DNA of 64,000 nucleotides from an uncultured Planctomycetia bacterium (GCA_964430735.1 CAYSFB010000002.1:94027-158026), one strand, 5' to 3'; shown: positions 26,333 through 48,157, numbered from the stretch's first letter. Notes: a model not told the origin generated them from the sequence alone. A program made the numbers and translations.

Positions 26333-29300
26333 TCAGCGGGTCTGCCCCGCACGAAACAGGAACGGGTCCGTGCCGATGGTGCCGACGAGGCTTTCGCGGT
26401 AAGCGGCGGTCTTCGCATGCGCGAGTTTTTTCTGCGCGTCCGCCAATTTCTGACGAACCGCCTCCTTCTCGCCTTCCGACACCCGGGCCGTCGGCCCTGA
26501 GAGCTCCGTCAGATAATCGACATGGGATTGGTACAGCAGCAGGTCATTGCGCTGCTTCATGTCGAGCCGCTCACGATACCAGGCGCTTCGGACCACTTCG
26601 TCCCGCTCGAACATCCGGCGGATGTCCGGATGCATGACGGGCTTCGACTCGTAATGTCCGTGCGCCATGATATGCAGCAGCGCCTTCAGCGGCGGACAGG
26701 CCGCTTCGATACTGCCGTCGTTGAAGTAGTGCTCGGCGACGCGCCGATAGGTGACGAGGATGTTTTCGATCCCCTCCACGAACGCGTCCGCGTCCTGAAG
26801 CTCGGGCTTCAGCATCTCGCGGGTAAAAACGATGTTCGGATTGTTGAACACGCGGCCTAGGAACGCGTTGACGAAACGCTGCGTGATCCGATATCCCAGA
26901 ATGCTGGCCTGGACCCGCTTGCCCTTGTGGTCAAAGTCCTCCACCCGTTCCAAAAATCCGTTTCGGATCAGATAAACGGCCTCTTGCTCTTCCGCGCGCA
27001 TCCGGCACCAAATCTCGGGAACGAGCAGGGAGATGTCGTGGTCCACCCGGTAATTCGGACCGATGTAGCTCGCCGCCGAAGAAAATCCGTCGTACCCGGT
27101 GAGAACGAACGACAGAAACGCGTTGTTGAGGTCCACGATCGGAGGCAGCGCATTGAAGGGGCCTTTTGTGAGCGCGCCTTCGGAACCGAAGCCGGTGGTC
27201 GAAGGCGACTTTCCGGTCAGCGAAGAAATGAAGTCCATGAACAGTTCCGGCAATTCCTGAAAATGAACCGGATTGTACACGGCCAGCGCCGGCACGCCCG
27301 CCTTGCGGTCAGGCGGATTGTTCCGGCGGCCGGGCAGAACCGCGTTCACGGGCTGATGCACCGGCTTGTCGACCGGAACCAGGCGGCGCAGCCGTGCGGC
27401 GAGTTCGGCAATGTAGACGGAGCGCGGGTTCACATGGTCGGGGCGCTTCTGCAGGTAGCGCGGGTTCTTGGTCGGCTTGCCGTCGACGATCCGGGAATGC
27501 GCCGACGAGACCACGAACTGGTCCGGCCCGGCGTTGGCCGCGAAGTCGCGGAGCAGCTTCTTCATCGGATCCGTGAACTGATCAAACTTCACGACGTCCT
27601 GAACGATGTCGCGGACCGGCTCGAGCCCGAGCGGTTCGAAGTTGGAAATAAAAGTCCCCGGCGTCGCAAGGTCCGTCTCGGCCTGCTTGTCGAATCCCCG
27701 GTAAACGGCGTCGTCCGGACGCTGGAACAGATAGTTCTCGCAGTTGCGGATCATCTTCAGACTGGGGTTCGAAAAGTCAGGGTTCAAATGCTGCATCGCC
27801 GCGCGCGGAACCGTGACGGAGGCCGTGATGTCGTCGGCGGCCTGGATCTTGTTGGCAGCCGAATAGTCCGTCCGAACGCGGAAGATGCGCCAAGATCCGT
27901 CCTTTTCGCGTCCGACACGCAGATAGTTGGCGACCAGCTTGCGGTTTTTAAATTTGAGCTCGTGCCCCGGATGGCCGTTCACGAGGTCGACCGAAAAACG
28001 GCTGCGCCAATCCCCGCCCCAATCGGCGCGGTAGAACCGCTTCACGCAGAACAGAATCTCCTTGATGTAATCCGGGATCGACTGGAGCCACGCGTTGTAC
28101 TCGTCCGTGTGCTCTTCCGAAACGGTGAACAGCTTGATCACCGAGCCGAGAGAACGTTCGTTCGACAGCACCGGCCGGCTCGGGCGTCCGGGAGGGGGCG
28201 CGCTGCCGGGCCTGAACCGGCCCGAGTAATCGCGCTTCAGAAGCTCTTCGACCGCGTCCATGTCCTTGTTGAAATCGGCGACAAAAACGGGTCCCTGGAT
28301 CATCGCGTCGACGATCGACTTGGAGATCTCGGACTTCCCGCCGCCGGACACGGTGCAGGGCTTGTGGCACAGCACGCCTTCGGGCACGGTGCCGATCAAA
28401 TGCCAGGCATAACCGCCGGTCTGGCGCTTGATCCGCACCTTGTAACCGGACGGGAGCAGGTACGTGTGGTCGGCCAGGAGCTTGATCCTGCAGGCCTTGC
28501 CCCCGCGATTCCAGCTGATCGCCTGGTCTTGAAGGTTGAAGCGCGCGTCTTCCGGGACGAGGATGACATCGCGATGCGTCCGGTCGACCGCGTGCCCTTC
28601 CGGCATCACATCGACGTTCTTGCCGTAGATCTTGAGCGCGTCGGCCATCGTATTGCGGCTGCGCGACATATGCGGTTCAAGGACAAATTCTTCGCCGAGG
28701 TCGTAGGTCGCGTATGCCAGCGCGCCGCCGGAATGCTCCTCTTCGCACAGACCGTAGAGGTTCGCGGCGTAGCTGATCTGGGTCTTCACTTCCTTTTTGC
28801 AGTACCCGAAATAATTGTCGGCGATGATCGTGACGATGACGCCGCGCGCGTCACGGCAGGTGATTTTAAAGGCGCCGCCGTCGTTATAGAGCTCGGACGC
28901 GTCCTTCCAGCACATGCCGTCGCGCCGCTGACGTTCGTTCGCCTGGTCGTAATGCGGGAGGCCGAGATCCTTTTTCCGGAAGGTCGTGAGATGCGGCGCG
29001 AGGATCACGCAGCCGGTGTGGCCGGACCAGTGTTCGACGTCGCGGCCGGCGTCGTGATCGGGAATATAGGGATCTCCGGCATTGCCGAAGATCGTTTCGA
29101 CGAAGTCGAGATTGGAAACGAGGTTGCCGGGGACGAAAAAGCGGATCTCCATCGATTTTTCGCTGATGAATCCCGGGACGTCGGGACAAATCACCGGTCT
29201 GAGCAGCAGCGAAACAAAAAGTTCGGCAGGCTTCGCTTCGGCGGACGTGAACGGAAGCTGCAGCAGTTCTTTGGGCGGGCGGAACGCCTCGATCAGAAGC

Positions 29301-29812
29301 CGCCCGAAGACCGATTTGGGCACCGCTTTTTTATCATCCGGGATCGGGAGGCCCCCTTCGGTGACGTGGAACACTCCCTGCGTCGTCCGGCGATCGTTGC
29401 GCGGGTTGTGGAGAACTCCCTGCCAGATGCGGTACGAATCGATGATCGCCGAATGAAATTCGTCGCTCGCGCTCGGCAGCGACATCAGACGCGCCATTCC
29501 GGGACGATCGAGGATGAAGGGATTGAGCGGCAGACGGGTGGAGGCACGGGGCAGCCCTTCGACGCCGGACAAAACGTCGTCCAGATAATCCTGAATGCGC
29601 TGGTCCGCGGGACTCAGCGCGTGATCGGCGAAGCGGCTCCGTTCGCGATGGCTGCGGAACAGCGGGTCAGCGAGCTTAAGAAGCTCAGACTCATCCGAAA
29701 CCTGCTCGATGTCAAAGCCCATGTAATTGAGCTTCAGGCGAATGTAGTCAGCCAACTGCTGGGCATGGGGATCCGCTAGGCTGGAACGCATGGAACACCT
29801 CTTATGGGTCAA
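26333..29812 (-). CDS. Large (1159 aa) conserved cytoplasmic protein. The size and composition are compatible with PPi-type phosphoenolpyruvate carboxykinase (PPi-PEPCK family); the assignment is tentative.
   Basis: The amino-acid composition is diverse and non-repetitive, and there is no signal peptide or TM segment. The length matches the ~1150-aa PPi-PEPCK family. The overlapping + strand ORF 26927..29779 (950 aa) is Arg/Val/Gly-rich antisense. A -10 TATAAT (minus strand, plus coordinates 29853..29858) and a GAGGTG RBS lie upstream. Confidence 0.75.
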   Translation of the reverse strand: MTHKRCSMRSSLADPHAQQLADYIRLKLNYMGFDIEQVSDESELLKLADPLFRSHRERSRFADHALSPADQRIQDYLDDVLSGVEGLPRASTRLPLNPFILDRPGMARLMSLPSASDEFHSAIIDSYRIWQGVLHNPRNDRRTTQGVFHVTEGGLPIPDDKKAVPKSVFGRLLIEAFRPPKELLQLPFTSAEAKPAELFVSLLLRPVICPDVPGFISEKSMEIRFFVPGNLVSNLDFVETIFGNAGDPYIPDHDAGRDVEHWSGHTGCVILAPHLTTFRKKDLGLPHYDQANERQRRDGMCWKDASELYNDGGAFKITCRDARGVIVTIIADNYFGYCKKEVKTQISYAANLYGLCEEEHSGGALAYATYDLGEEFVLEPHMSRSRNTMADALKIYGKNVDVMPEGHAVDRTHRDVILVPEDARFNLQDQAISWNRGGKACRIKLLADHTYLLPSGYKVRIKRQTGGYAWHLIGTVPEGVLCHKPCTVSGGGKSEISKSIVDAMIQGPVFVADFNKDMDAVEELLKRDYSGRFRPGSAPPPGRPSRPVLSNERSLGSVIKLFTVSEEHTDEYNAWLQSIPDYIKEILFCVKRFYRADWGGDWRSRFSVDLVNGHPGHELKFKNRKLVANYLRVGREKDGSWRIFRVRTDYSAANKIQAADDITASVTVPRAAMQHLNPDFSNPSLKMIRNCENYLFQRPDDAVYRGFDKQAETDLATPGTFISNFEPLGLEPVRDIVQDVVKFDQFTDPMKKLLRDFAANAGPDQFVVSSAHSRIVDGKPTKNPRYLQKRPDHVNPRSVYIAELAARLRRLVPVDKPVHQPVNAVLPGRRNNPPDRKAGVPALAVYNPVHFQELPELFMDFISSLTGKSPSTTGFGSEGALTKGPFNALPPIVDLNNAFLSFVLTGYDGFSSAASYIGPNYRVDHDISLLVPEIWCRMRAEEQEAVYLIRNGFLERVEDFDHKGKRVQASILGYRITQRFVNAFLGRVFNNPNIVFTREMLKPELQDADAFVEGIENILVTYRRVAEHYFNDGSIEAACPPLKALLHIMAHGHYESKPVMHPDIRRMFERDEVVRSAWYRERLDMKQRNDLLLYQSHVDYLTELSGPTARVSEGEKEAVRQKLADAQKKLAHAKTAAYRESLVGTIGTDPFLFRAGQTR

Positions 29813-29910: not shown

Positions 29911-30519
29911 TTAGAGGAGAACGAGCGAGTAGGAAACGGTCGAAGAGTAATCGCCGCCCGGAAAGTCCGGTGGAATACCCACCCAGCCAGGGAAAGGAGC
30001 GGAACCGTCGGAGTTCGCGCCGCTGATGCCGTAAGTCAGATTGATCACAGCCGAATCGCCCGCGGTGGAGGAAGTATAGATAATCCGATTACTCATCACG
30101 GCGGCCTGTGCGCTCGGATTAAACGAGTCGCCGGTGATGTCCGCGCCGGCCTTGGTCGCACCGATAATCTTGAGCAACGTGGCGTTGGGAAGCGTATTGG
30201 TTCCGCTCGTCGGAGCCGGCATGGTTCCGGCGACCGTGTAAGGACGCGCGGACGTATTGGTGCTCAAAAAAACGCCGAAGGCCCGGGTTCCCCACTGGGC
30301 GTTAAGCCCGTCTTTGACCAGCGCTCCGAAGTTCATGGCCGTGCCCAAGTCCGAACCGATCGGGTTGCCGCTGGTGTCGAGCTCTTTAACGACCACCGTC
30401 ATCGAAAGGCTCGCCGCCACATCCGCCGTCACCGTAACACTTTGCTGAAAAGCGCAGTAACCCGTCGATGAGAAAAGTGTGCAGCAGGCCGCTAGAAGCG
30501 GTAAAAAGTATTTTTTCAT
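29911..30519 (-). CDS. Small secreted/lipoprotein-like protein (~202 aa), beta-rich, function unknown
   Basis: The true start is most likely ATG 30519 (MKKYFLPLLAACCTLFSSTGYCA..., a signal peptide with a possible lipobox LAAC). The track start at 30567 is a TTG that is itself the -35 hexamer TTGACA. The protein is Thr/Ser/Gly/Ala-rich and ends in SYSLVLL. Confidence 0.6.
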   Translation of the reverse strand: MKKYFLPLLAACCTLFSSTGYCAFQQSVTVTADVAASLSMTVVVKELDTSGNPIGSDLGTAMNFGALVKDGLNAQWGTRAFGVFLSTNTSARPYTVAGTMPAPTSGTNTLPNATLLKIIGATKAGADITGDSFNPSAQAAVMSNRIIYTSSTAGDSAVINLTYGISGANSDGSAPFPGWVGIPPDFPGGDYSSTVSYSLVLL

Positions 30520-30536
30520 AGTTTTTCTAAGTCGCA

Positions 30537-30567
30537 ATATTAAAGCAGTACTTTGATTTTTTGTCAA
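30537..30567 (-). promoter_or_regulatory. Sigma70-like promoter of the small secreted protein gene: -35 TTGACA (30567..30562), 18-nt spacer, -10 TAATAT (30542..30537)
   Basis: The minus-strand sequence reads TTGACAaaaaatcaaagtactgctTTAATATtgcgacttagaaaaactATG. Confidence 0.5.
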
Positions 30568-32840: not shown

Positions 32841-35800
32841 CTAAGCGACGAGGGCCATGCCCAGAAGCGCGTCTTCCTCAGGAAGGAGGTTGGGATTCTG
32901 GATCATCCCAGCGTTCATCCCGCTTAAGTCGAGGCTCGCAAAAAGCTCGTTCTGAATCTCCGGGGAACTTTCGAAGAGGTTCTGACTCGAGAAGATGCCA
33001 AATCCGCCTCCTTCCAACTGAAGGGACCCGAACCCGGGCGAACTCGACGAGATGCCGCTTCCGGAGACATAGGCGCCCAAGACACGGGTTAAATCCACCG
33101 ACTCGCTGGCCACGCCTTTTACCCCGGTGGCGGAGCCGGGGACATTCGTCAATCCGACAAAAATGATTTCGATGTAATCGTAGCTGCCGGGACCATCCGG
33201 GATATAACGCGTCACGCGGTTGCTGTCGCCGTTGTAGTAGCTCATAGTTGCCAACCAGCGAATCAGATTGAGCGCTCCCGCCTTCTGGGAAAACCCGGCT
33301 CCCCCGTCGGTGAGCGTGATGAGCTTGCCGTCTCCCCGGAGGAATTCCGAGGTGTATTCGTGGGTCAGATAGATGCCGAAGGCGTCTAAGTCCGCGTCCA
33401 CATCGGCGTCGGTGTCCGAGGTGTCGTTGAAGACAAGGAAGGTGTTCGCATCAGGGGCTAAATTCGTGGACCAATTGTCCGCGTCGCTCGTAAGACCGTT
33501 GGCGTCGCCATTATCCCAGAAGATGCCTTGAATATTGGAAGCCGAAGGGGTCCAATCCGAATCGCTTAGAGTGCAGCTGTAGCAAGTGATCGTGGTGCTG
33601 GCTCCGTTGTCCTGATCCGAAACGTTCACATCAGTCAGCATGAACACGCCGCTGCCCGACTTGGTCCAGGTGCGGTCGTTTAAGGCGTTGGTGGAGGTGA
33701 TGGCGATTTCATCTGCGCCGTTGCCGTATCCGCTGCCGTTGAACATGATAAGACCTGCGTTGGTCAAATTCCCGCCGAGCACGACATCTCCCGTGCTGTT
33801 GTTGATCCAGTTGCCGTTGGCGCTGATCGTGACAGTGCCGTCGACACTGATGTTGCCAGTCCCTTGATAGATGCCGCCGGCGGTGACCGTGAGATTGCCG
33901 TCCACATCGAGGTTGCCCGACAAGGTCCAGCTCGCCTGGGCATTGAAGGTCACGTTGTTAAAGGCGCCTGACCCGAAGATCATCGTTCTGTTACTGCCGT
34001 CTCCTGAGAAGGTGATCGTCTCCGATTGATTGGAGTCCTTGGTGTATGTTCCGTCTTCACCATCCCAGATTCCGGAAATGGCAATCGCTATCGCCGAGGT
34101 GTGATTCGCATCGAATATGCCTGTGCCGTTGATTTCTAAATTGGTTGCCGTTACGTTCCCTTGTGGGGCGAAGGTGTCGCCGGTGTGGATAAAAAGCTCT
34201 TTATTGGTCGCGACCGTAAGATTGCCTCCCGAGACCGTGTATATGGCCGTGATATCGGCATCGGCGTTCGTCTCAGCGGTCTCGAGGTTGGCGTTGGTGA
34301 TACTGGAGCCGGTCTCATAGCGCACGATGAGTTTGTTCTGGTAGATGTCGATACCCGTAAGCGCTGCTCCGTCTGTGACGGTCACGGTGACGCCATCCTG
34401 TGTCTCCCCGTCGAGGTACAGAGTCAGAACATCTCCGGAAACGATCGTAAGACCCGTGATCGAGTAGGCTCCGGATCCGTTGGTGTCGTCGGTTCCGGCG
34501 GCGATTGCGCCGTTGATCGAGATGGCGACGGTCACGTTCGCGATGCCGGTGACGCCTTCGTCGCTGTAGACGGTGCCGCTCACGTCCACGGTGCTCGACA
34601 GCGTCCAATTGGTGTTGTTGCCGCCGTCGTTCGTGTCGGCCGGAACGACCGTGCTGCCGCCGCCGGCGTCGGAATCGGTCACATCCGCCCAATCGATGTC
34701 TGCGGTTCCGTTGAGCACCAGCATCCATTCCGTTCCCGGGGACGAAGAAACCAGATTCACCCGGTCGTTATCGTCGATGCCGGTGATGGTCAGCGTCCCG
34801 CCGACTCCTATCGTAAAGGTGTCGCCGGCCGCGAAGGTCAGCGTCACGTCCGTCGTATTGTTGCTCGCGTCGGTCTTGGTCAGGTTATAAAAAGTAACGC
34901 TGTCGCCGGTTAATATCTGATTGGCAGTGCCGTTGAACACGAACGTGGAAGTTCCCGCCGTGAATGTGCCGGACGCCGTCCAATCCCCCGCCACGTTCCA
35001 GGTGTCGTCCCCGGCGCTCAGGGTTTGGTTGGCGGCGATGACGAAATCGTCAGACACCGTGATCGCCCCGGACCCCGTTTTGGTCGAAGTCGCGCCGCCC
35101 GAGCCGTCGCCGAAGGTTAAATCGTTGAACGTCCAGCCCGTATTGCCGCCAAAGTTCCCGGTCCCGTCGAGGAGGAAAACCCCGCCGGTCAGATTGATTG
35201 TACCGTTGCCGGTGACATCTCCGCCGTTCACCGTGATGTCAGACGTGCCCGATAGCGTTCCGGCGGTGACGGTTAAATCGTTCGAGATCACGGTCGCATC
35301 GGCAAAGCTCCAACCGCCGCCGGAGCCGTTAAACGTCACATTGTACCAATCGGATCCGCCGTCGGTGATCGTGTTGCCGGTGTCGGTCGCGTCAAACGTC
35401 ACCGTTCCGCTGCGGGCTGTGAAGGTGTCGGCGTTGGACCAATTATTCCCAACCGTGATCCCAAAATTGGATCCCGACTTCACGTCGAGCGTGCCGCCGG
35501 TGATCGTCAGATTGTTGTTGGTGTCGAGCGCGTCCTGCAGCTCAAAGGTCGCCGTGCCTCCGCCGTCGTTCAGGGTCAGATTGTAGAAGGACGATCCGCC
35601 GGAGGTGATGGTCTTCGTTCCTGAGGCGCCGTTGAATGTCACTGTCCCCGATCTGGCCGTGAAGGTGTCCGCATTGGACCAGTTGCCCCCGACCGTGATG
35701 GCGGCGTTCGTTCCGGACTTGGTGTCGAGCGTGCCGCCAGTGATCGTGAGGTTGTTGTCGACGTCGAGTGCGTCCTGAAGCTCGAAGGTGGCCGTTCCGC

Positions 35801-38800
35801 CGCCGTCGTTCAAGGTCAGATTGTAGAAGCTCGTCGACGCGGAAGTAATCGTCTTGGTGCCCGATGTTCCGTCCAGCGTCACGGTGTTGGTGCCGGCTGT
35901 GAAGGTGGGACTGTTGGAGACGGTCCAGTTGCCGCTCACGGTGAACGTGCCGGAGGGGGCCGTCAAGGTCCCGCCCGAGAGCGCCAGGTTACCGTTCACG
36001 TCGACTGTGCCGCTGGATCCGGTAAAGGTGCCGCTGGAGATCGTGAGACCGCCGTTGAAGGTCTGAGTGGCGGTGGAAGCCGTGTAAGTTCCGCCGTTCA
36101 CGGTGGCGGCTCCGGTAACAGTAGTAGTCCGGGTGTTGGCGCTGTAGGTGCCGGAGGTGACAGTCATGGTTCCGGCGACGGCCAGATCCTGACCGTTCAT
36201 CCGGAAGGTTTCGTCTCCGGCGGTGGAATTGATCGTAAGGTTATAGAAGTCGGTGGATCCGAAGTTCTTGATATCAAAGGTGGTGGTACCGCCCGCGCCG
36301 TCACCGACGTATTCCCAGGTGCCCGAATCGGTGTCCTGGGTGAGCGAGATCGTGTTGCCGCCGTTCAGCTTCACAATGTCGCTGTTGGAAAAAGTTCCCG
36401 TGACCGTGATGCTCTGGCCCTTCAAGTGCAGGGTGCCGCCGGTGAGAGTGAGATTGTTGCCGACCGAGAGGGCGTCTTGCAGCTCCCAGGTGGCCGTTCC
36501 TCCGCCGTCGTTGAAGACGAGGTTGTAGAAGCTTTCTCCTGCCGACGTGATCGTCTTGGTACCGCTTGCGGCGTCAAAGGTGACCGTTCCTGAGCGAGCG
36601 GTTAAAACCGAGTTGGCGTCCGCAAAGGTCATGTTGCCGCCGACGGTGATCGCGTAATTGCTGGTACTGGAGTCCAGGGTCACCAGATTACCGGTAACAT
36701 CATCGATCAGCATATTACGGTCCACATCAAGATCGGCTGACAAAACATAAGTAGCCGCACCCGACCCGTTAGACAGCGTGAGGTCGTAGAAGGGCGCCGA
36801 AGATGTTCCGCGCAGGTAAACCGTGGCTCCGGCAGTCAAAAAAGAAACCGTTCCTGCTCCAGGATTGAAGGTTCCGCTTGAATAAGTCCACGAACCGGTC
36901 GTCGTAAACGAACCGGATGTCGCGATGAGCGTTCCGCCGAAGATACCGACGTTGTCCAGCGTCAAGGTTCCCGAATCGCCGTCCAAAGTTCCGCCCGTGA
37001 GTATCACCGCTCCTGTCAGCGTGCTGGTATTTACATCCAAGGTCCCCGCCGCAATCTCAGTGGTCAAAGGGGACAGGTTCGCGTTCATAGTCACAGTTAC
37101 GTTGTTGATATACAAGTAGTTAACCGAAAGTGCGGCATCGATCGTCGTCGAGCCTCCTCCGATCAGCTCAAGGTAGTCGACAGAGCCGCCGAATGACGCG
37201 TCAACGGTCGTCACATATGCATTTATCTGGACGTAGTCGCTGCTTGTGGGCTCCACGTCTCCGCTCCAATTCGCATCATCCGACCAATTTATGCCGTCTC
37301 CTCCCCCGTCCCAAGTAATAACCGATCCCGGAAACACGAAGTGTAAGTTGCCGCCGGTGTTGGTGCTGCTGGCGGCAAGGATGGTCCGGCCGCTGGCCGT
37401 CTGACTGGTCAGATCCACATCCGTAAAGTTAAAAGTGCCTGCACCCTGCCACGTCGCGGCCCCGGTAATCACGATATCATCGGCGTCGCCTGCCCCTCCT
37501 CCATTCCCGTTGAAGGTCACAGCGCCGTTATTGGTCACAGTACCGCCGGTGAAGTTGATATCGCCCGTCGAATTGTTTGTCCACGCGCCGGTTCCATGAA
37601 TAAACACAGTAGCCAAATCCATGTTGTGCACACCCTGATCGAGCGTTCCGGATTTGATCGTCAGGGTTCCGGCGACGGCGATCGCATCGCCGAGCGTGAC
37701 CGTCTGACCGCCCGTAATTTGAAGATTGTTGAATGACGAACCCGCCCCGGAGGTGATTGAATTTGACGACCCATTGTTCATGACGACGGTGCCTGAGTTA
37801 TGGGTAAACGCGCCTCCGCTCCAAGCGCCCGTGAACGTGAGTATCCCGCTCGGCAGTGTGAGAGACGTGCCGCTCAAGGTGACGTTTGTCGCCGAGATAT
37901 TGCCGGCTATGCCGACAGTCTTGGATGCCGTTCCTCCCGAACCGGCGGCACCTGGATTGCCGGCCTCATCATCATTGCCCGCGGAGCCTGCAGCGCCGCT
38001 GCTGCCGGAAGCAGTCAATGCCCCGGCAAAATTGAAGGTTCCGGATGACGTGTCAAGCTGCGCCGTGGAATTGCCGCCGGCGCCGCCATTGCCGCCGTTT
38101 GCGCCGGAATCCCCGCCGCCATTGCCGCCGCCGCCCGCAACTGCAGAAATTGTAAAAGTCCCGCCGACAGTGACGGTCCCGCTAAACCCGGTCACCCTCG
38201 CAGTGCCACCATTGCCGCCATTGCCGCCATTGCCGCCATTGCCCGCGCCGCCGGCTTCACCGTTTGCTCCGGCGCCTCCTGCACCCGCGTCGATATTGAG
38301 GTTGCCTCCGACCGAAAAGGAGGTTGAGGTCCCCGTCAGAGTCGCGCTTCCTCCGCTGCCGCCGTTGCCGCCGTTGCCGCCGGCTCCAGTGCCGCTGTTG
38401 CCGTCACCGGGCGTGCCGCCGCCGGCACCGATCCCACCCGCAACAGAAACGTTACCGGTAATGCTGGTAGATCCGGACCCAATTGTAAACGACGCCGCAC
38501 CGCCATTGCCGCCATTGCCGCCGGGGCCGCCGCTCGAAGACTGCCCATTATCGCCGGCGCTGCCGCCGTTGCTCCCCCAGGCAGAATTATTCGTCAGCGC
38601 ACCGCCGGCACCGCCGGCAATACTCAAAGCGCTGCCGATCGTAAGTGACCCCGAACCCATCGTCATGCTCGCGCTGCCGCCCGAACCGCCCGAACCGCCC
38701 GAACCTCCGCCCGTTGCGTTGTCATCGCTTCCTTCACCACCCGAACCGCCCGAACCGCCATCGCCTCCGCTGATATTAAGATTGATCGTCACCGAAACGT

Positions 38801-41800
38801 TGAATGAGCCCGAAACAAGCGATCCGTTGGTACCGTTCGCTCCATCGGATCCGGGAGTTGCATCTCCATCTCCGCCGTCTGTGCCGTTGGTGCCGCTGGT
38901 GCCGGTGATCGAGAGAGAACCTGTGACGCTGAGGTTATCCTGAAGCGTGGCGGTATTCCCGGAAATCGTGAGATTATAAAATGACGACGCGCCCGAGGTG
39001 ATATTCCTGGCAGTCGTGCCGTTGAATGTGACCGTACCATTTCTTGAAGTGAAGGTGCCGGAGTTGGACCAGTGTCTTCCTATGACGATGTTATAGTTGC
39101 TTCCGCTCTTCGTGTCGAGCGTACCAGCGGTGATGGTGAGATCGCGGTTCACGCCTACGTTGCCGCTCAAGATCCATGTGCCGCCAGACCCATTGAAGGT
39201 TAAGTCATAGTAGGTGCTGCCAACCACAAGGCCCGACGAGTAGGTACCCGTACCGTTGTAGACGACCGTTCCGGAGTCGGTGTCGTTGGTGAAGTTGGTG
39301 AGCGTCTCGCCGCCCTGGAGTCGGAGGGTGGAGTTGTTCACGAAGGTAGCGCCGCTCATCGTAAGGTTGTTGCCGTTGAGGTCCAGGATTCCTTGCGTCA
39401 GTGTGAGTGTGCCGCTGCTGCCGATCACCTTCGCCGCGCCTGACTGGAACACATCGGTTGAATCCGTTGCATTGATCGTGAGATTGAAGTAATCCGTGGA
39501 CCCGAAGTCGGGGAGCGTGAAGGTGTCGGCCGAGCTGTCTCCGTCGCCGACAAAGGTCCAAGTACCGGAATTGGTATCCTGGGTGAGGCCGGTGATCGTC
39601 TCGGACCCCTTGGCCTTTACATTTGCAGTGTTGCTGAAAGTGGCGCTGGTCATGGTCCAGTTGATTCCATTGAGATCGAAGGTGCCGGCAGAGTTGGTGA
39701 AGTCGTTCGTCACGGTGAGCGTCGTGTCGTTGGCCAGCTGCAGGGTGCCGGAGCCGGAATGAGTTATCCGGTAGAACGAAGTCCCTCCGGAATCCAGAGT
39801 CTGGGTGCCGCTTGAGTCAAACGTCACACGGTTGGTGCCGGGGGTAAAGGTACCGCTGGTTTGAGACCAGTTACCTCCTACGGTAAAGGTATCTGAGGGA
39901 GCAGTGAGGGTTCCGCCGTTGATCGTGACGTTGCCGTCAATGTCTAAAGTCCGGGTGGAGCCGTTAAAGGTTCCGGTCGTGACGGTGAGGCCGCCCGCGA
40001 TCACGGTGCCGCTGCCGAGCGCAAAAGTTTCGTCGGACCGGGCATCAATCGTGAGGTTGTAGTAATCGGTGGATCCGAAGTCTTTGATGGTGAAGCTGGT
40101 GGTGCCTCCTGCCCCGTCTCCATAGTAGGTGAAGGTGCCGGAGTTGGCGTCGATGGTGCTGATGCTCACGGTGGTCTCAGAACCTTTTAGTTTGACGGTG
40201 CCGCTGTTATCCAATATCCCCGAAACAGTCAGGTTGAATCCCGCCAGATCCAGAATACCGCTCGAATTCACCGTCAGACCAAAAACGGTGACGTTGGTAT
40301 CCAAAATAGGGTCGGTGGCCACGTCGGCGATCACAGCCAAGTCAATTGATGTGGGTACCGCGTCCCCACTCCAGTTGGCCGCCGTATTCCAGGCGGTACT
40401 GGAGCTTCCGTCCCAGGTGCGGGTCGTGCCGAAGGTCCAGCTCGTGTTGTTGCCGGAATTGGTCGAGACGGCTGTCGAGGCTGCAGTCGTTGCTATGCTG
40501 TCTCTTACGTCCAAGTACGAAAAATTCTTGGTCCCGCTCGCGTCGATGGTATACGTGCTGCCGTTGGAGGACGATCTCAGAGACAAGAGCTGTCCCGAAG
40601 CGCCATTAAGCGTAGCGGTGCCGGTGATCGTGGTGGTCGTTCCCGCCGCAAACGTGAGCGTCCTGGCCGTCGTGACGCTCTTGGTCAGAACCGCAAACGT
40701 GAAGTTCCCGTCAAGCGTCTGGTTGGTTCCGTTCAGAACCACAATGCCGCCGTTGGGGTCAAATGTGCCGGTTAAATTCTTGGTCATATTTCCCGCAATG
40801 TTCGTCTGCCCGAACCCGGTAAACGTAGCACTGCCTGCGGAACCACCCGAGCCACCAGCACCGTCGGAACCCGCTGTGCCGCCGGAACCGATCGTTCCGC
40901 CGCCGCCGCCATCATTACCGCCTGCGCCGGCCGCAGGACTTCCTGCTCCGTTCGAACCAGAAGACCCGGCTGTCCCTCCGGTGATGGTCAAAGAACCGCT
41001 AATGGTGCCATTGAACGACGGCGCACTCGCAGCGCCGCCCGCACCACCGGAACCGCCGGTGCCGCCAGCTCCACCGTTGCCTGCATTGCCGCCGTTACCC
41101 GTGTCCGCTGGAGCAGCGGCATCACCGCCCATTCCACCGCTGCTGCCGTTACCGCCTGATCCGCCGCTTGAGGATGCGCCGCCGATCAGCGTCAAGTTGC
41201 CCGTAATAGTGCCGGTGCCAACTGAGGCGGCGGCTGCGCCGCCGGCGCCGGCATTACCGCCGTTGCCGCCCGCACCAGCGCTGCCGCTATTCGATCCGTT
41301 CGAAGCCGTCCCGTCTTCGCCGTCCGCGGCGGTGCCGGCGCTGCCGCCAGCGCCTGCAGTTCCGGCATTACCGCCCGTAACCGTTACGCTTCCACCGATT
41401 GTGGTTGTGGAGCCGGCCGTAAAGCTCGCCGTTCCGCCCGCTTGCCCATGCCCCCCGATGGCGCCCGAACCGCCGTCACCCCCGGTGCCGTGTGCTCCTA
41501 CGCTTCCCGCCTCACCGTTGCCTCCGGAAGAACCCCCACCGCCGCTTCCGCCGTTTCCGCCGGTGACCGTGAGGTTACCCGTCAAGGCAACGACACCGCC
41601 CGAACCGTCAAAGCTCGCATTCAAGTCAGGATCCGCCCCGTCGGTTCCCGGAGTGCCTGCCGTACCGTTTACGCCACCCGCCCCATCGACTCCGGCAGAG
41701 CCCGTTGTGCCGTCAGCTCCATTACGCGCGGTGATGGACAAGCTTCCTCCGATATTTATGGTGTGTGCGCCTAGGGCAAAGTTACCTCGATTGATGGTCA

Positions 41801-43880
41801 AGTTACCTACTGTCAGGGTTGCAACATTGACGGTGACCGTCCCTATATAGGATGCGTCCATCGTCAGATCGCCACCCGACCAAGTACCGATGTTATCGAT
41901 ACTGATGTTAAAAGTACCCGTTAGAACGACGGCGTCGGTTCCGTCCGGAACCACATTCCCGTCCCAATTGGTGCCATCGCTCCAGCTTGTGCCATCCCCG
42001 CCCCCGTCCCAAGTCGGGTCGATGAGGAGGTTGGAGTTGTTGCCCCGGTTGGCACCGTGCTCGATGAAGCTAAAGTGAACCATCCGGACATCCTGGAACG
42101 AGACACGGTCCCAATTAACCCCCGGGCGAATCTGACTATTTGGATTATTTAAGTCCAGGAAGTATTGAGTTCCGCGGATGGAGGACCAAAACTTGATGTG
42201 CTGTTCGCCGCCTTCAGACTGCGGCTTATCCTTGGCTCCGATGATCCGTACGTCTCCCAAAAAGCGGTAAGTCTCCCCCGCCTGGAACGTGATCTCGATG
42301 TCGGGGATGATGGCAGTGAAGTTGCCGCCGAAGGTGCGGGAGCCGTCTATATAGATGTTGGAGAGGAGGTTGACCGAGTCCGGGGTACCCGGGACAAAGC
42401 CGCCGGACCAGTTCAAGGGATCGGAGAACAGGTTCGAGGAAGAACCGGTGAAGTCCAGGGCCTGGAAGGAGATGTTCTGATTGTTGCCTTCGTTCTTCGT
42501 GAGTGAGACTTCCAGACTTGGCGGGCCATGGGCATAGACATAGACCGTATCCTGGAGACTTGAGAACTTGATGTCCGAAGTATTCACCTGTCCGATCATC
42601 CAGGGAGTGCCATTCTGGGTGGACCGGATATTTAAGAGCTTGCCATAGGATCCTTGAAGCGTGAGACTCCCGGTGAAACTTTGGGTCCTGCCGGCTTCGA
42701 AGCGCATCGTCTTCTCAGGCGTTAATACATAAAAGTCGTGGAAGGTATTGGATCCCGAGATCAGGGAATCCTGGGTTGTGATGAACTCGACTTTGGAATC
42801 CCCGGCCAGGAAAGATCCTTCATTCGTCCAATCGTTTTGGATCAGGAAGTGCGTGTTGCCCTGGACCTGGAGGACGGCATCTTCCGTGATATGAAGCGAC
42901 TGGGCGGAGATCTGGGTATTGGGAAGGGTCTGGATCAGGCCGTTTAAGGTGAGCTTGCCTTCTACGGTCAGGTCCCCTGTGATGGTGGCGTTCTTGGCCT
43001 CTACTTTGACTTCCTGGGCCTTGAGGGTTCCCTCGACCTGCACCTCATCCGCCATGAGTTCGATGACACCGTTGGTCTCAACGATTTTTCCGGCTTCAAT
43101 GACGCCTGTGTTGTTGACGACGGAGGTCATGGCTTCATCAAAGCTCTTGGCAGTCAAGGTGACGTTATGTCCGGCTGAGAGGGAGCCTGAGTTTGAGACT
43201 TGGGGGTTGGAACTTAAGGCTTCGTGCAGGCCTTCGGTGATGGTGAAGTGAATAAGGCCTTCATTATCAAAGGAGAGGGTGGCTTTTTCGGCGGAGCCGA
43301 GGATGACTTTGCCGGCATGGGCTTGGATGGTTCCGGAGTTCAGGACTTCCGGGGCTAAGAGCAGGGCGTTACCGGAGGCTGAGATATGGCCATTGTTTGT
43401 GATGCCCTGAGCATTGCCGGAATTGGAGAAGTTGTAGTTGCCGGAGGTGAAAAGAGCGTTTGAGATGTCCAGGGTCGAGGCGATGAAGTCCCCTGTCTGA
43501 ATATCGGCCGTATCATGGATATGGATGCCGTTGGGGTTCACGAGAAAGAGCCTTCCATTGGCTCGTAAGACGCCGAAGATATCGGAAACGGTGTTGCCGG
43601 TGACCCGGGCCAAGACACTGGCGTCGACTGAGGGCTGGATGAAGCGGACTTCCTGGCCTTCGGCGATCGAGAAAGAATCAAAGTTGATGACGGCGTTGTC
43701 GGAAGCGGTGATCTCGAGAAGATTGGGCTGGGAAGTGTCAAAGGTGGCTTGGCCGGATTCAACGACGGGGTCGGCGGCTGCGGGCCCGGCCCACAGACAC
43801 AGAGCCAACGACGCCCCTGCCATAATAGAGGGAATCAGCGCCGATCGTCCGCTAAGTTGAGGCCTTATGACTCTCCGCAT
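32841..43880 (-). CDS. Giant (3679-3685 aa) TpsA-like exoprotein: extended signal peptide, a filamentous-hemagglutinin N-terminal (TPS/haemagg_act) secretion domain, then ~3,300 aa of beta-helix-type repeats with two Gly-rich low-complexity blocks
   Basis: The N-terminus [36 protein letters not shown] is followed by a segment of TPS-domain signature character: ...[81 protein letters not shown]. The track start at 43898 (MIACGC) overlaps a TTGACA promoter; ATG 43880 or 43823 is more likely the real start. There are long arrays of TGTFT/NLTI/FYNLT beta-strand repeats. GGNGG(A/S)GG tracts fall at ~40750..41900 and ~37800..38900. Confidence 0.85.
37800..38900 (-). repeat. Gly-rich low-complexity block 2 of the TpsA-like protein
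   Basis: The sequence reads [32 protein letters not shown]...GGNGGNGGNGG. The antisense reading gives the PPLPPLPP artefact ORF 37726..38943(+). Confidence 0.7.
40750..41900 (-). repeat. Gly-rich low-complexity block 1 of the TpsA-like protein ([21 protein letters not shown] repeats)
   Basis: Seen in the translation. The antisense reading produces the Pro-rich artefact ORF 40129..41850(+). Confidence 0.7.
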
Positions 43881-43973
43881 ACACCCACACGCTATCATGC
43901 GAGTCAGTGTATGTCAACTTGTGATAAGTATTGTTTATTATGGATTAGAAGGATTTAACTCGGAAATGGGCGT

Positions 43974-44861
43974 CTATTTGTTCTTTTTGACCCATTCCAT
44001 CGACCGGCGCGCCGAGGCCCGGTAATGGATGTCGTAGACGATTTTGCGGATGGCGGTCTTGAGAATTTTGGTCAAAAGTGACCCGTCGGCGTAGTCGGCC
44101 TCGGCAAAGTGGTCCGCCCGGCCCGCGAAGACCATCTCCTTCACCTCGTCGGACACACCAATGTTCTTGTCGAACACGGCGATAGCCTGGCCGCCCGCTT
44201 TTTGCGTCAGCGTCATGGAAGGAATATCCGTCGCTCCGTCGCCGATATAAATCATGTTGCGGAACGGGATCGGCCGTTCGTTGTCCGGCATATGCGAATT
44301 GATGTCCTCGGACAGGTCCAACTTCCCTTTATTGATGCGGAACAGGAATTGCGTCTTGTTGGTGTCGTTGATCACGAGCTTCGGAAAAACGGGACGGCCG
44401 TTCTCGTAGGCAAATTCGCAGGCATAGGCCTTGCGGAAGCGGCCGGCGATGGTGCAACCGGACAGAATTTCCATCAGTCCGCTGGAAATGACGTAATGCT
44501 CGATCGTGATGCCGCGTTCGACGGCTTCCGGAATGTCTTTTAAAAAAGCGTCCATCCGGTCGAAGTATGTCTCCACTCCGTTGAAATACCGGATCCGCTC
44601 TTTGGCCAACTCGGCCAGGCGCGACGGATTGAGCGGCCGCTTCGCGAAAATGGGCTCCGAAATCAGCATCTTGAGGTACGCGAGCGTGCGTTCGTACCCC
44701 TGCTCGCGCGTCAGCGCCTGCGACCGCTTCCAGAATTCGTCCTTGTCGAGTCCGTAGTCCTCGAAAATCGTCCGCTCCTGCATGTTGTCGGGGCTCAGCG
44801 TTCCGTCGAAGTCGTAGACGATGGCGATGACGTTCTGCTTGGGAAGGATGGTGTCTTTCAT
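43974..44861 (-). CDS. HAD-superfamily hydrolase/phosphatase
   Basis: 295 aa. Motif I is IVYDFDGTLSP (DxDG[TV]), with downstream HAD motifs. The start ATG overlaps the upstream gene's stop as ATGA. Confidence 0.75.
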   Translation of the reverse strand: MKDTILPKQNVIAIVYDFDGTLSPDNMQERTIFEDYGLDKDEFWKRSQALTREQGYERTLAYLKMLISEPIFAKRPLNPSRLAELAKERIRYFNGVETYFDRMDAFLKDIPEAVERGITIEHYVISSGLMEILSGCTIAGRFRKAYACEFAYENGRPVFPKLVINDTNKTQFLFRINKGKLDLSEDINSHMPDNERPIPFRNMIYIGDGATDIPSMTLTQKAGGQAIAVFDKNIGVSDEVKEMVFAGRADHFAEADYADGSLLTKILKTAIRKIVYDIHYRASARRSMEWVKKNK

Positions 44862-46282
44862 GCGGCTGCTTTCTTATGGCGGTTGATCAGCAGCGACAAT
44901 GCAGGCGGCGTCAGAATCGTCGTCAGCATCACCATGATGACGATGACCGCGAATTCCTCGTCCGAAACGACCCCCAGCTTCATACCCATCATCGCGAAGA
45001 TCAATCCGACTTCGCCGCGCGGAACCATCCCGACGCCGACGACCCACTTGTCCACCTTGCCAGCCGCAAGACCCGCGACGATTTTGCCGGCGACGGCGAC
45101 CGCCGTGATGCCGAGAGCCAGGAGCAGCGCGTGCGCGTCAAAAAGTGTTTCGAGCCGGACCGAAAAGCCCGTCATGATGAAAAAGATCGGGACCAAAAAC
45201 CCGGCCACCGGCTCGACCAGATGCGCCGCGTGATGGTCCTTGTGATGGTCCAGAACCCGCTTAAGATCCGTCCGGGCCGGCTCCGGCCACCTGGCCGATG
45301 CGCTCTCGAGCTCCTGCACGATCTTGGGATCGTCGAAGTGCTTAAAGTGAAACGGCGTGAGCACGAGCCCGGCGGCAAACGCGCCGACGATCGGAGCCAA
45401 TTCGATCAGATGGGCCGCATAGGCGAACAGAAGGCAGGTCGCCAGCGCGAGCGTCAACTTCATCGCTGGAGCGGTCGAAAAGCGCGACATGAGCACATTG
45501 TTCACGGGCGCCAGCATGCGGCCGACGACGAGGGATCCGGCCAGGAACAAAAATGCCTTGAGCGTGATCCAGCTGATCATCACAGGGCTCGCCGCACCGG
45601 TCGTGACGACGAGCGATACCACGGCCAGAATGATCAGCCCGAGCACGTCGTCGATCACTGCCGCTCCCAAGACGATTCTGGCTTCCGGCAGGTGGATCTT
45701 ACCCAGGTCCTGGAACACACGCGCGGTGATGCCGACCGAGGTCGCGGTCAGCGTCGCGCCGAGGAAGAGGTAGGCGTTAAAGCCGGCATCCGGAAAAAAC
45801 AACGGGCCGACGACGAACGTCCCCAAAGCGAACGGGACCACGACGCCGACGCAGGCAACCAAAAACGCGCGGATGCCGACCTTGCGCATCTCGTCCACGG
45901 TCGTCTCGAGTCCGACCTGAAACAGCAGCAGGACCACGCCCAATTCGGCCAGGAAGTGAATCATGGGATCAGTTCGAAGCGGTTCGAGTCCGTGGAATCC
46001 GATCAGGGTGAGATTTCCGAGCAGAACACCGAAGAGAATCTCGCCGAGCACGGCGGGCTGTCCGAATTTTTCGATCATCCCGAACACTTTGGCTCCCAGA
46101 ATGAGCAGCGCGATCCACAGAAAAATCTGCGCCGCGCCTGCTCCGTGGCCGGAATCCGGGGCGGCTCCTGCGGCTGCAAACAAGGGTGTGCAGAACCATA
46201 AAGTCGGCAAGGCGATGATTGCCGCGGCCGAAGTCAGACCGGGACGTCCGATACGCGGGAACTTGAAAAAGCTCGGCTTCAT
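44858..46282 (-). CDS. Monovalent cation:proton antiporter (CPA1/CPA2, NhaP/KefB-like)
   Basis: The likely start is ATG 46282 (MKPSFFKFP...), which overlaps the hemA stop as ATGA. The track start at 46378 would run into hemA. The protein has 11-13 predicted TM helices, including GAKVFGMIEKFGQPAVLGEILFGVLLGN, typical of the CPA N-terminus. Confidence 0.8.
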   Translation of the reverse strand: MKPSFFKFPRIGRPGLTSAAAIIALPTLWFCTPLFAAAGAAPDSGHGAGAAQIFLWIALLILGAKVFGMIEKFGQPAVLGEILFGVLLGNLTLIGFHGLEPLRTDPMIHFLAELGVVLLLFQVGLETTVDEMRKVGIRAFLVACVGVVVPFALGTFVVGPLFFPDAGFNAYLFLGATLTATSVGITARVFQDLGKIHLPEARIVLGAAVIDDVLGLIILAVVSLVVTTGAASPVMISWITLKAFLFLAGSLVVGRMLAPVNNVLMSRFSTAPAMKLTLALATCLLFAYAAHLIELAPIVGAFAAGLVLTPFHFKHFDDPKIVQELESASARWPEPARTDLKRVLDHHKDHHAAHLVEPVAGFLVPIFFIMTGFSVRLETLFDAHALLLALGITAVAVAGKIVAGLAAGKVDKWVVGVGMVPRGEVGLIFAMMGMKLGVVSDEEFAVIVIMVMLTTILTPPALSLLINRHKKAAA

Positions 46283-47334
46283 GATTTTTCCTCTGCGTTG
46301 AGACGGGTCGTATCGGGAGATCCTGCCGTCAGCCAGGCCAAAAATTGTCCAGTCGACCGGTCGATGATCGATCGGCATGCCGCCACCGCCGCCTGGCGCG
46401 CGCGGGCGTTGCGGTCGGCGATCACCTGGAGGTTGTCCAGATTATAAAGGTAGACGTCCGGGAGCTCGTTGACGTCCTCGTGAGCGTTCCGCGGCACGCC
46501 CAGGTCGATCAAAAAAATCGCACTGCCGTTCTTGCGCTTCATCCAGGTCCCGACGCGGTCCCGGTGGATAAAGGCAGTCGGCGTTCCGGCCGACGAGATC
46601 ACGATGTCGGCCGAAGCGGCCTCCTCGTCAAGCCGCTCATACGGAACCGCGCGGCCGCCGAACTCCTCGACCAAACCTTCGGCGCGTTCGGTGTTCCGGT
46701 TCACGATGACCAGCTCTCCGATTCCCCGGCCCATCAGCGACTCGCAGACCGCGCGGGCCATCTGGCCGGACCCGATGAGGAGCACCCGCTTGTTTTTGAG
46801 CGAGCTGAAGATTTTGAGCGCCAGGTCCACCGCGATCGACGCCATGCTGATCTTGCCCTCGCCGATGGGCGTTTCGGTCCTCACCTTTTTGCCGACCCGG
46901 AGCGCGCGCTGGAACAGCGCGTTCATCGCGCGAGACGTGCGGCCGGACGCATGTGCCTTGGCGTAAGCGTCCTTGACCTGACCGAGAATTTCGGTTTCGC
47001 CGAGCGCCATCGAATCCAGGCCCGCGGCAACCGCAAAGAGATGCCGGACCGCATCGGCGTCCGTGCTGAAATAGGTGTGGCTCCGGAACGACGACTCCGG
47101 CTCGCCCGAGAATTCGGCGAACGCGCGCACGACGTGCTGCAGCGCCGCGTCGGGGTCGGCCGCCCACCCGTACACTTCGGTCCGGTTGCAGGTCGACAGG
47201 ATGACCTGCTCCGCGATCCGGCCGCCCGAAGCGAGAAACGCGCCGAACGCCTGATAGCGAAGGTCGGTGACGGAGAACTTTTCGCGCAGGCCGATGGGCG
47301 CGGTCTTGTGATTCATACCGACGACGAAGATCAT
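46279..47334 (-). CDS. hemA: Glutamyl-tRNA reductase
   Basis: MIFVVGMNHKTAPIGLREKF...VILSTCNRTEVYG (catalytic Cys motif), followed by an NADPH-binding LLIGSGQMARAV segment. The true start, ATG 47334, overlaps the upstream stop (ATGA). The track's 485-aa version begins in an Arg/Gly-rich non-coding-like extension. Confidence 0.9.
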   Translation of the reverse strand: MIFVVGMNHKTAPIGLREKFSVTDLRYQAFGAFLASGGRIAEQVILSTCNRTEVYGWAADPDAALQHVVRAFAEFSGEPESSFRSHTYFSTDADAVRHLFAVAAGLDSMALGETEILGQVKDAYAKAHASGRTSRAMNALFQRALRVGKKVRTETPIGEGKISMASIAVDLALKIFSSLKNKRVLLIGSGQMARAVCESLMGRGIGELVIVNRNTERAEGLVEEFGGRAVPYERLDEEAASADIVISSAGTPTAFIHRDRVGTWMKRKNGSAIFLIDLGVPRNAHEDVNELPDVYLYNLDNLQVIADRNARARQAAVAACRSIIDRSTGQFLAWLTAGSPDTTRLNAEEKS

Positions 47335-48128
47335 GGCTTCGAGTGCGCCCCCCAAAACACGAACAGCATCAGCAGATAAAACGCCGCGCTGACGGACGCC
47401 ACGGTCCGGGAGCGGCCCCGGGCGCCAAAACGCATCCAGACCAAAAAGACATACAAAACCAGCATGAGCACCGACAGCGCCACGGTCGGGTCCCCAAAAA
47501 CGTCGGCGGGCCGGTCCAAGCCGCCCATGACCTTGGCTCCTCCGGCCACGCCCATCGCCAACGCCGCCGTTCCGACGGTCAGCGCCGCAAAATTGAGCCG
47601 GGCCGTCAGCTCGAGCGGCGGGAGCGTCGACAGATGCGCCGCGAGCGCGCGCTGCTTGATCATCCGGTCCTGAATCAAAAAGAGGGCAGAAAATATAAAG
47701 GAAAGCGTAAACGCGGCCAACGCCGTAAACATGCAAAAAACATGGCCTTTGAGCAGGCCTTCGAGCGCGGCTCCCGTGCCGAGACCGGCCGGTCCGCCCG
47801 CGCGGTACAGCGCCATCACTCCCAAGGCGAGGCTGACGGCGGACAGGATCGCCGAAGCCCAGCGGACGCGGACGAACAGGCGCACCGCGCCGTATGCAAC
47901 CGCGAGGATGCAGAGCGTGAGCAGCACGCCGTCAAAAAAATGAGCGGGCTGCCAGGACCCTTGAGCCCGCAAACGGCCGGTCAGAACGGCCGCCGTCATG
48001 AAGGCTCCGAGCGCGTAGCTGATCTTGGAGGCTAAATGGGCGTAGCGGAGCTCGGTCCGGCCGCCGGCCACCGCCAGCAAAAGACTCAGCAGGTAGAGGA
48101 AAAGGGAGAAGAGAAAAAAGCGTTCCAT
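47331..48128 (-). CDS. hemX: HemX-like / CcsA-family (cytochrome c assembly protein family) integral membrane protein
   Basis: 265 aa with 8 TM helices. The segment FTLSFIFSALFLIQDRMIKQRAL closely matches the corresponding B. subtilis HemX/CcsA-family segment. It is immediately upstream of hemA and translationally coupled to it, as in the Bacillus hemAX arrangement (here in the order X then A). Confidence 0.7.
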   Translation of the reverse strand: MERFFLFSLFLYLLSLLLAVAGGRTELRYAHLASKISYALGAFMTAAVLTGRLRAQGSWQPAHFFDGVLLTLCILAVAYGAVRLFVRVRWASAILSAVSLALGVMALYRAGGPAGLGTGAALEGLLKGHVFCMFTALAAFTLSFIFSALFLIQDRMIKQRALAAHLSTLPPLELTARLNFAALTVGTAALAMGVAGGAKVMGGLDRPADVFGDPTVALSVLMLVLYVFLVWMRFGARGRSRTVASVSAAFYLLMLFVFWGAHSKP

Positions 48129-48135
48129 CTACCGG

Positions 48136-48141
48136 ATTATA
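48136..48141 (-). promoter_or_regulatory. Perfect -10 TATAAT located 7 nt upstream of the hemX-like ATG (possible leaderless transcript start for the hemX/hemA/antiporter/HAD operon)
   Basis: The minus-strand sequence reads ...TAAaaggccccggagTTGATATAATccggtagATG. It lies in the 29-bp gap after the giant B stop. Confidence 0.4.
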
Positions 48142-48157
48142 TCAACTCCGGGGCCTT

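Follow-up and report, generated by a model that had tools for sequence, protein, structure and literature searches.

A probable two-partner secretion passenger with two glycine-rich blocks and no linked transporter gene in a 64-kb window from an uncultured Planctomycetia bacterium

The closest solved counterparts of the secretion domain described here are those of EtpA, HMW1 and HxuA, passenger proteins (TpsA) of the type Vb or two-partner secretion (TPS) pathway; in all three, as in the present protein, the TPS domain is joined to a beta-solenoid passenger that carries no toxin tail. Their operons include the gene for the transporter (TpsB), together with a glycosyltransferase gene in the case of EtpA and HMW1, which are reportedly N-glycosylated adhesins. 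FhaB of Bordetella is similar to the present protein in size (~3,600 amino acids, aa), in its N-terminal TPS domain and in its beta-helical rod, and it has a role as an adhesin; fhaB is linked to fhaC, and the C-terminal prodomain of FhaB is processed. The gene that concerns us occupies 32841..43898 on the minus strand of a 64,000-nucleotide stretch of DNA from an uncultured Planctomycetia bacterium (GCA_964430735.1, CAYSFB010000002.1:94027-158026), which is referred to below as the window and from whose first letter all positions are counted. Its product is probably a TpsA passenger of the adhesin or fibre kind, served by a TpsB that is encoded at an unlinked site.

The assignment to the TPS pathway is carried by the N-terminal domain. 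When the first 700 aa were scanned alone, PF05860 scored 91.3 bits against a cut-off of 33.5 (E 1.2e-25) over aa 65-292, and TIGR01901 scored 70.2 bits against a cut-off of 29.1 on the first 340 aa. Among solved structures the domain aligns with EtpA (8cpk) at E 1.7e-35 over aa 47-306, with HxuA at 8e-25 and with HMW1 at 2e-23. The sequence NPNGI at aa 121-125 lines up with LVNPNGV of EtpA; the NPNL box is absent from the domain, and the aligned EtpA sequence is likewise without it. A putative signal peptide precedes the domain, with an Arg-rich n-region, a hydrophobic core and then AAA followed by DP at aa 40-44, as read by eye from a protein with three candidate starts (M1, M7 or M26, the last being the choice of the Logan gene call, which gives 3,660 aa).

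A Pfam scan of the full-length protein returned zero families, and this could be mistaken for evidence against a TPS domain. That use of the result was rejected: the null is an artefact of composition bias, because the isolated N-terminus scores 91 bits. The composition of the protein is strongly skewed (G 17.3%, T 14.3%, S 10.6% and N 8.4%, K, R and C being very scarce), and in giants so biased the TPS domain could escape automatic annotation. The first-pass annotation of this DNA, made from the sequence by itself, had called the N-terminal ~300 aa a TPS domain and had named the PF05860 threshold as a check. The two profile scores and the NPNGI sequence bear out the call; the check is passed when it is run on the isolated N-terminus, whereas a full-length scan would wrongly fail it. 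On the whole, what that annotation had observed about the gene was confirmed, and its interpretation was supported only in part, as detailed below.

The passenger contains 16 copies of an SFYNLT-type motif, spaced 73-96 aa apart, in modules of ~80-95 aa that together amount to roughly 1,400 aa. Repeats of this kind had been said to fill the whole passenger of ~3,300 aa; the repeats are real, but their extent was overstated. In Pfam and NCBIfam scans of the passenger nothing reached threshold save DUF5649 at aa 3314-3365. AlphaFold modelling of aa 2440-3060 (34719..36581) with a 55-sequence alignment gave an all-beta structure with three short strands per 20-aa coil (pLDDT 94.2, pTM 0.88), and the SFYNLT modules are thus modelled as a beta-solenoid. 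A Foldseek search of this model against the Protein Data Bank (PDB) gave no significant match, and the entries in the non-significant list are almost all solenoids (RsaA, an RTX toxin block, EtpA, UpaB, Hap, EspP and pertactin).

The SFYNLT module is by no means confined to TPS proteins and is widespread among uncultivated bacteria. A homology search with aa 2380-3060 recovered 208 proteins, mostly annotated as hypothetical, from Omnitrophica, Patescibacteria, Bacteroidota, Chloroflexi and others. The module is found alongside a TPS domain (in the relative P0159), the autotransporter domain PF03797, the type IX secretion domain PF18962, and SLH, LamG and CarboxypepD_reg domains. Because it is joined with several different export and anchoring domains, it is a generic cell-surface scaffold. 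A family model for the module would annotate hundreds of hypothetical surface proteins.

A second recurrent element, the W-motif 'W..GG...W....NW....P' (extended as '...P...D'), is present in four copies that split the passenger into super-modules, with one copy at each start. The W-motif resembles the N-terminus of the Pfam Amnionless model, and the corresponding stretch matches that part of the model in large surface proteins of unrelated kinds (those of the RTX, cadherin, Ig or GLUG type) and also in a Ser/Thr kinase. As a separate observation on the passenger, N-x-S/T sequons number 115 in the protein, compared with 75.6 +/- 7.0 in composition-preserving shuffles, with their highest density in the SFYNLT modules; the Asn residues concerned may be merely structural. 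The window contains no HMW1C-like glycosyltransferase.

Because the gene is so long and repetitive, one might suspect that the open reading frame (ORF) or its repeat blocks are an artefact of assembly or frame, and repetitive GC-rich sequence does yield long antisense ORFs here, at 37726..38943 (+, 405 aa) and 40129..41850 (+, 573 aa). These overlap the two glycine blocks described below and are not genes but a consequence of the GGN-rich sequence of the coding strand. The gene itself translates as a single unbroken frame of 3,685 aa. A short-read contig from Logan (SRR14271366_9513, 43,182 bp, run SRR14271366) is 100% identical to window positions 33974..54861, that is, over 20,888 bp (20.9 kb) with both glycine blocks inside, and an assembly artefact is excluded because this independent assembly agrees across both blocks. 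In addition, homologues match along the entire protein, and the repeats have diverged at the DNA level, where a single 240-bp x 2.2 array (74% matches) was found besides three 9-bp micro-arrays (38204-38243, 38353-38382 and 38677-38705). The repeats are therefore old at the DNA level, and the artefact explanation is essentially refuted.

No copy or orthologue of the gene was recovered from the genome and metagenome collections scanned. A scan of genome contigs with the N-terminus gave no match, a scan of metagenome contigs gave only partial matches at 30% identity, and no database record matched the 3,685-aa product exactly. The best N-terminal matches are Omnitrophica TpsA proteins from metagenome-assembled genomes (P0159, P0002 and P0001), which are 34-38% identical to the present protein over its first ~480 aa. 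The alignment of P0159 is colinear through aa 11-756 (28% identity), breaks off, and picks up again at aa 2814-2960, where identity reaches 70%; relative to P0159, the present protein has ~2,080 extra residues (aa 757-2813, 35460..41630, minus strand), within which both glycine blocks lie. P0159 is, however, a partial fragment of 887 aa on a 2.8-kb contig, and its flanks are not visible. P0002, which is complete at 704 aa, is much shorter than the present TpsA and has an adjacent TpsB. None of the three shows the glycine blocks.

The transporter question was addressed within the 64-kb window. Pfam scans of all large ORFs there revealed no TpsB (POTRA_2/ShlB) gene, and two Omnitrophota TpsB proteins searched against the six frames of the window with tblastn and phmmer gave a best E > 0.2. 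No Omp85, ShlB or POTRA protein is found among the neighbourhood genes. The stretch free of TpsB extends 32.8 kb downstream and 20 kb upstream of the gene, so that the earlier statement that none lies within 10 kb on either side not only holds but can be widened. The label 'orphan' given in the first-pass annotation is supported at the scale of these 64 kb of a 293-kb contig, and not at that of the genome. The expectation behind that statement, namely that TpsB is normally encoded beside TpsA, is also a fair one. The loci of eight relatives were examined, two of which (L007 and L089) show no TpsB and end at a contig edge inside the TpsA gene; the 6 closest relatives with both flanks visible all have a POTRA_2/ShlB gene within 10 kb, adjoining TpsA in L004, L005, L091, L099 and L100 and 5.9 kb off in L090. 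The lack of a linked TpsB is thus unusual for the clade, yet it has precedent: the two genes can be arranged in other ways, and certain TpsB proteins export two or more different TpsA proteins (PMC5422565). Linkage to a TpsB is customary for a TpsA but does not belong to its definition. By itself, the missing linkage opens no new question.

The locus of the Omnitrophica relative L090 (10001..20023) deserves a separate remark. Two TpsA genes stand in tandem there and are followed by genes for a CHASE2-GGDEF protein, a protein with a FecR domain and a TpsB. A single transporter apparently handles both passengers, and a link to cyclic di-GMP is possible.

If the genome had no compatible TpsB at all, the protein would be stranded and unexported, and the gene would be either a decaying relic or the source of a protein with some periplasmic role. 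The absence of TpsB from 64 kb, set beside its retention within 10 kb in six of six close relatives, is what such a situation would look like. Nevertheless, an ORF that is intact over 11 kb and a well-conserved TPS domain argue that selection still acts on the gene; its neighbours are housekeeping genes of the same orientation, separated by short gaps; and TpsB genes are common in Omnitrophota, the phylum of the best relatives. We consider a stranded TpsA rather unlikely. Export without a dedicated TpsB is also improbable, more so than the polyglycine-II/polyproline-II reading of the glycine blocks that is taken up below.

Giant TpsA proteins may also be toxin-delivery proteins, and a CdiA/BcpA-like effector of contact-dependent growth inhibition (CDI) has to be considered, in which a new toxin would make up the C-terminal ~140-220 aa and the immunity gene would be non-adjacent or non-canonical. 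The TpsA architecture and the giant size fit such an effector, and a tail without homologues would not be out of place, in that polymorphic toxin tips are often lineage-specific. The diagnostic parts are nonetheless missing. A string search of the protein found no VENN, LYN, ELYN or related junction; Pfam found no toxin or PT-VENN/pretoxin domain in any segment, and Pfam and NCBIfam together found none in the C-terminal 352-436 aa. FHA-1 and FHA-2 repeats (PF05594, PF13332) are represented only by sub-threshold Fil_haemagg matches at E 0.16-0.54. The stop codon is followed by a 38-bp gap that holds no terminator-like site and leads into the gene for a 739-aa DUF255/thioredoxin-domain protein, not into a small immunity ORF. 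On both of these counts, the lack of a VENN/CdiA-CT junction and the lack of an immunity gene, the first-pass annotation was correct.

That annotation had also suggested a profile search of the C-terminus, and this was run with the last 246 aa. A word-indexed search gave no match, and an exhaustive phmmer search of 1.84 billion representatives gave 19 weak matches (best 1.1e-10), of which 18 are confined to the first ~100 residues of the query, in the W-motif stretch. Because the weak matches sit nearly all on the W-motif, the final ~140 aa are an orphan sequence, with no homologue among the 1.84 billion proteins. The C-terminal 246 aa have no relative among PDB sequences, and a single-sequence AlphaFold model of the C-terminal region is not confident (pLDDT 35). 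The Ser/Gly-rich character of the tail and the low confidence of its model also count against a toxin, and a CDI effector is, in our estimate, distinctly improbable.

The two glycine blocks are the most distinctive part of the passenger. They had been described as almost pure GGNGGxGG over ~350 aa each; two blocks are indeed present, but the description overstates them, since they measure 317 and 336 aa and contain 37% and 35% Gly. As segmented by eye, block 1 consists of a 10-triplet G-x-x leader and 4 units of 63-69 aa, and block 2 of a G-x-x leader and 6 units of 46-58 aa, with 9-bp DNA arrays (GGN x3-4) inside. Each unit begins with a ~20-aa beta segment, 'ASFTxGSxxxIxGxLxVxGG', which is exactly one solenoid coil in length, and continues with a G-x-x/GGX run of 25-48 aa. 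The autocorrelation of Gly is 0.35-0.37 at lag 3 and 0.11-0.23 at lag 9, and it gives a unit period of ~62-68 aa for block 1 and ~45-48 aa for block 2. There are 8 runs of at least 3 GGX triplets and 12 runs of at least 5 GXX triplets; the GGX runs are 3-5 triplets long, and the runs of both kinds are broken every 46-69 aa by the 20-aa beta segment.

The blocks are without detectable kin. A phmmer comparison with 266 fetched relatives gave no match, the core of block 2 is covered by no homologue, and a search of PDB sequences returned only a chance match (E 0.19). Shorter Gly-rich turns of like flavour occur in two other TPS proteins (P0033 and P0035). Compared with P0159, the ~2,080 extra residues that include both blocks look like a lineage-specific expansion.

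Similarity of the blocks to the calcium-binding repeats of oscillin had been proposed, and a calcium-binding beta-roll of the RTX or oscillin type could in principle drive extracellular folding. The blocks are rich in Gly and in Asn/Asp, a string search of the whole protein found GG.G.N eight times, and RTX and RsaA entries are among the non-significant Foldseek matches of the solenoid region next to the blocks. The same string search found the calcium-type GG.G.D only twice, however, HemolysinCabind (PF00353) gave no match at E <= 1, and the Gly period is 3 and not 9, with the autocorrelation falling off at lag 9 as given above. The oscillin comparison is not sustained, and a beta-roll is very improbable.

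The likeness to mycobacterial PGRS domains fares somewhat better. These domains have been predicted to form bilayers or bundles of polyproline-II/polyglycine-II helices from their GGX repeats (PMC13243192). The present blocks resemble PE_PGRS proteins in their runs of GGX/GXX triplets and in a strong 3-residue periodicity of Gly, so that the PGRS comparison stands as far as composition and periodicity go. It does not extend to homology: no sequence relationship to PE_PGRS proteins was detected, and no scanned segment gave a Pfam match to the PE domain. It is conceivable, though we regard it as a speculative and on balance unlikely proposal, that the blocks form polyglycine-II/polyproline-II helix layers within a type V-secreted beta-solenoid, with the 20-aa coil alternating with stacked G-x-x strands. 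If this were true, a PGRS-like structural element would occur outside mycobacteria, delivered by a different secretion system and without detectable homologues, and layers of the polyproline-II type would make the blocks a useful comparison for PE_PGRS proteins.

Returning to the reading of the gene as an adhesin- or fibre-type TpsA with an unlinked transporter, the mechanism looks ordinary. Sec would export the protein to the periplasm, where the POTRA domains of an Omp85-family TpsB encoded elsewhere, possibly one shared with another TpsA, would capture the TPS domain. The protein would thread through the TpsB barrel and fold outside the cell into a rod, which might reach ~70-80 nm if the greater part of the passenger is solenoid, with 20 aa to each 0.48-nm coil, and the rod would mediate attachment to surfaces or to other cells. 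In the glycine blocks, taken as lineage-specific expansions, a single 20-aa coil would alternate with each G-x-x excursion of 25-48 aa, and these excursions may form loops or strands of the polyproline-II/polyglycine-II type along one side of the rod. Three points weigh against this reading. Adhesin function is deduced only from architecture; the window holds no TpsB, and its location elsewhere is a step that we infer; and the glycine blocks have no homologues from which to build an alignment, their structure being conjecture. The unlinked arrangement and the lack of a toxin will be of little surprise to a specialist. The parts that merit attention are the glycine blocks and the unannotated SFYNLT module.

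The features of the gene and its surroundings are collected in the table below. Upstream of the start, the 75-bp gap at 43899..43973 is AT-rich and includes a TTGACA hexamer, and the G+C of the first 2 kb of the gene (42001..44000) is 0.54, below the ~0.60 of the surroundings; a promoter belonging to the TpsA gene itself is possible. The 64-kb window gave no match in Rfam and tRNA scans. The best matches of the transketolase are 59% identical and are spread over many phyla. The protein with a C-terminal S8 subtilase domain is encoded 8.4 kb downstream of TpsA. Bordetella FhaB is said to be matured by the subtilisin-like protease SphB1, and by analogy a processing of the present TpsA by the subtilase protein (19888..24444) is conceivable.

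Two further giant ORFs, g2 and g3, lie on the same strand as TpsA. Both are rich in Ala, Leu and Arg, and the first ~430 aa of the two are paralogous (24% identity, E 9e-21). g3 continues beyond the left edge of the window; embedded in its sequence is a PTS-HPr domain (46.8 bits), and there is a weak Hydrolase_4 match. A secretion theme shared by all three giant ORFs was considered and rejected, for g2 and g3 are unlike TpsA in sequence and composition.

Table 1. Positions of the TpsA-type gene, of the parts of its product and of the neighbouring genes in the 64-kb window (aa, residues of the product)
Feature	Coordinates	Strand	Remarks
Giant ORF g3, at least 5,872 aa	2..17617	-	open at window edge
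Transketolase	17746..19767	-	
1,518-aa protein, C-terminal S8 subtilase	19888..24444	-	Peptidase_S8 at aa 1324-1497
Asp-Al_Ex permease	24665..26320	+	
1,159-aa protein	26333..29812	-	without significant Pfam or NCBIfam match
218-aa protein	29911..30567	-	without significant Pfam or NCBIfam match
DUF255/Thioredox_DsbH plus six-hairpin-glycosidase-like region, 739 aa	30583..32802	-	38 bp beyond TpsA stop
TpsA-type gene, complete	32841..43898	-	3,685 codons plus stop
C-terminal tail, aa 3545-3685	32844..33266	-	Ser/Gly-rich; without homologue or toxin motif
W-motif, aa 3461	33399..33518	-	
DUF5649 repeat, aa 3314-3365	33804..33959	-	26.6 and 33.3 bits, cut-off 25
Second SFYNLT set, nine modules, aa ~2021-3060	34719..37838	-	
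W-motif, aa 2196	37194..37313	-	
Gly block 2, aa 1655-1990	37929..38936	-	336 aa, 35% Gly
First SFYNLT set, five modules, aa ~1245-1654	38937..40166	-	
W-motif, aa 1162	40299..40415	-	
Gly block 1, aa 724-1040	40779..41729	-	317 aa, 37% Gly
W-motif, aa 630	41886..42011	-	'W..GG...W....NW....P'; first module start
TPS secretion domain, aa 65-292	43023..43706	-	PF05860, TIGR01901, EtpA/HxuA/HMW1 alignments
Putative Sec signal peptide, aa 1-42	43773..43898	-	read by eye from translation
HAD-type hydrolase, 295 aa	43974..44861	-	upstream, 75-bp AT-rich gap to TpsA start
Na+/H+ exchanger	44858..46378	-	
HemA	46279..47736	-	
Cytochrome c assembly protein	47331..48128	-	
Giant ORF g2, 4,429 aa	48158..61447	-	HEAT_2 repeat at aa 3121-3191
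ResB, divergent	61726..63489	+	

How, then, does the locus compare with the systems already described? The giant proteins described from Omnitrophota are encoded next to genes for type II/IV secretion and pili, and they have antiparallel beta-helix or multi-enzyme architectures (bioRxiv 10.1101/2023.11.21.568195, 10.64898/2026.06.07.730766). The window is similar in that it too holds two other giant HEAT/multi-domain ORFs, g2 and g3, which resemble the HEAT-scaffold and multi-enzyme giants reported for that phylum. Omnitrophota is also the probable phylum of the present organism by sequence comparison, a placement drawn from the best matches of the TPS domain and of the passenger, at only 28-38% identity, and from the likeness of g2 and g3 to these giants; the transketolase adds no resolution. 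If the placement is right, adhesins of the two-partner type extend to a little-known phylum whose members are probably host-attached or predatory. The terms 'two-partner' and 'hemagglutinin' are absent from the main text of these two reports (10.1101/2023.11.21.568195 and 10.64898/2026.06.07.730766).

With PE_PGRS proteins the differences are more telling than the triplet runs held in common. Gly reaches only 35-37% in the blocks of the present protein, and the triplet runs alternate with a 20-aa beta-solenoid coil. The route of export is also different, PE_PGRS proteins using type VII export and the TPS domain being a type V export signal. CdiA and BcpA share with the present protein the TPS domain and the large size, and they differ from it in having the VENN/LYN junction, CdiA-CT, immunity gene and FHA repeats that it lacks. 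Every tested feature of CdiA-type toxins and of RTX repeats proved absent, and membership in the PE_PGRS group fails for want of a PE domain.

The comparison with the adhesins is closer, although not complete. Relative to EtpA, HMW1 and HxuA, the window has neither the TpsB nor the glycosyltransferase gene, the passenger repeats of those proteins are unrelated in sequence to the present ones, and they have no glycine blocks. Relative to FhaB, the Fil_haemagg/Fil_haemagg_2 repeats are below threshold in the present protein, no fhaC-type partner is linked, and there is no sign of a processed prodomain. The testable features that define a TpsA, namely the TPS domain, the NPNG box and the solenoid passenger, are all present, and the place of the protein is beside EtpA, HMW1 and FhaB, not among the CdiA toxins.

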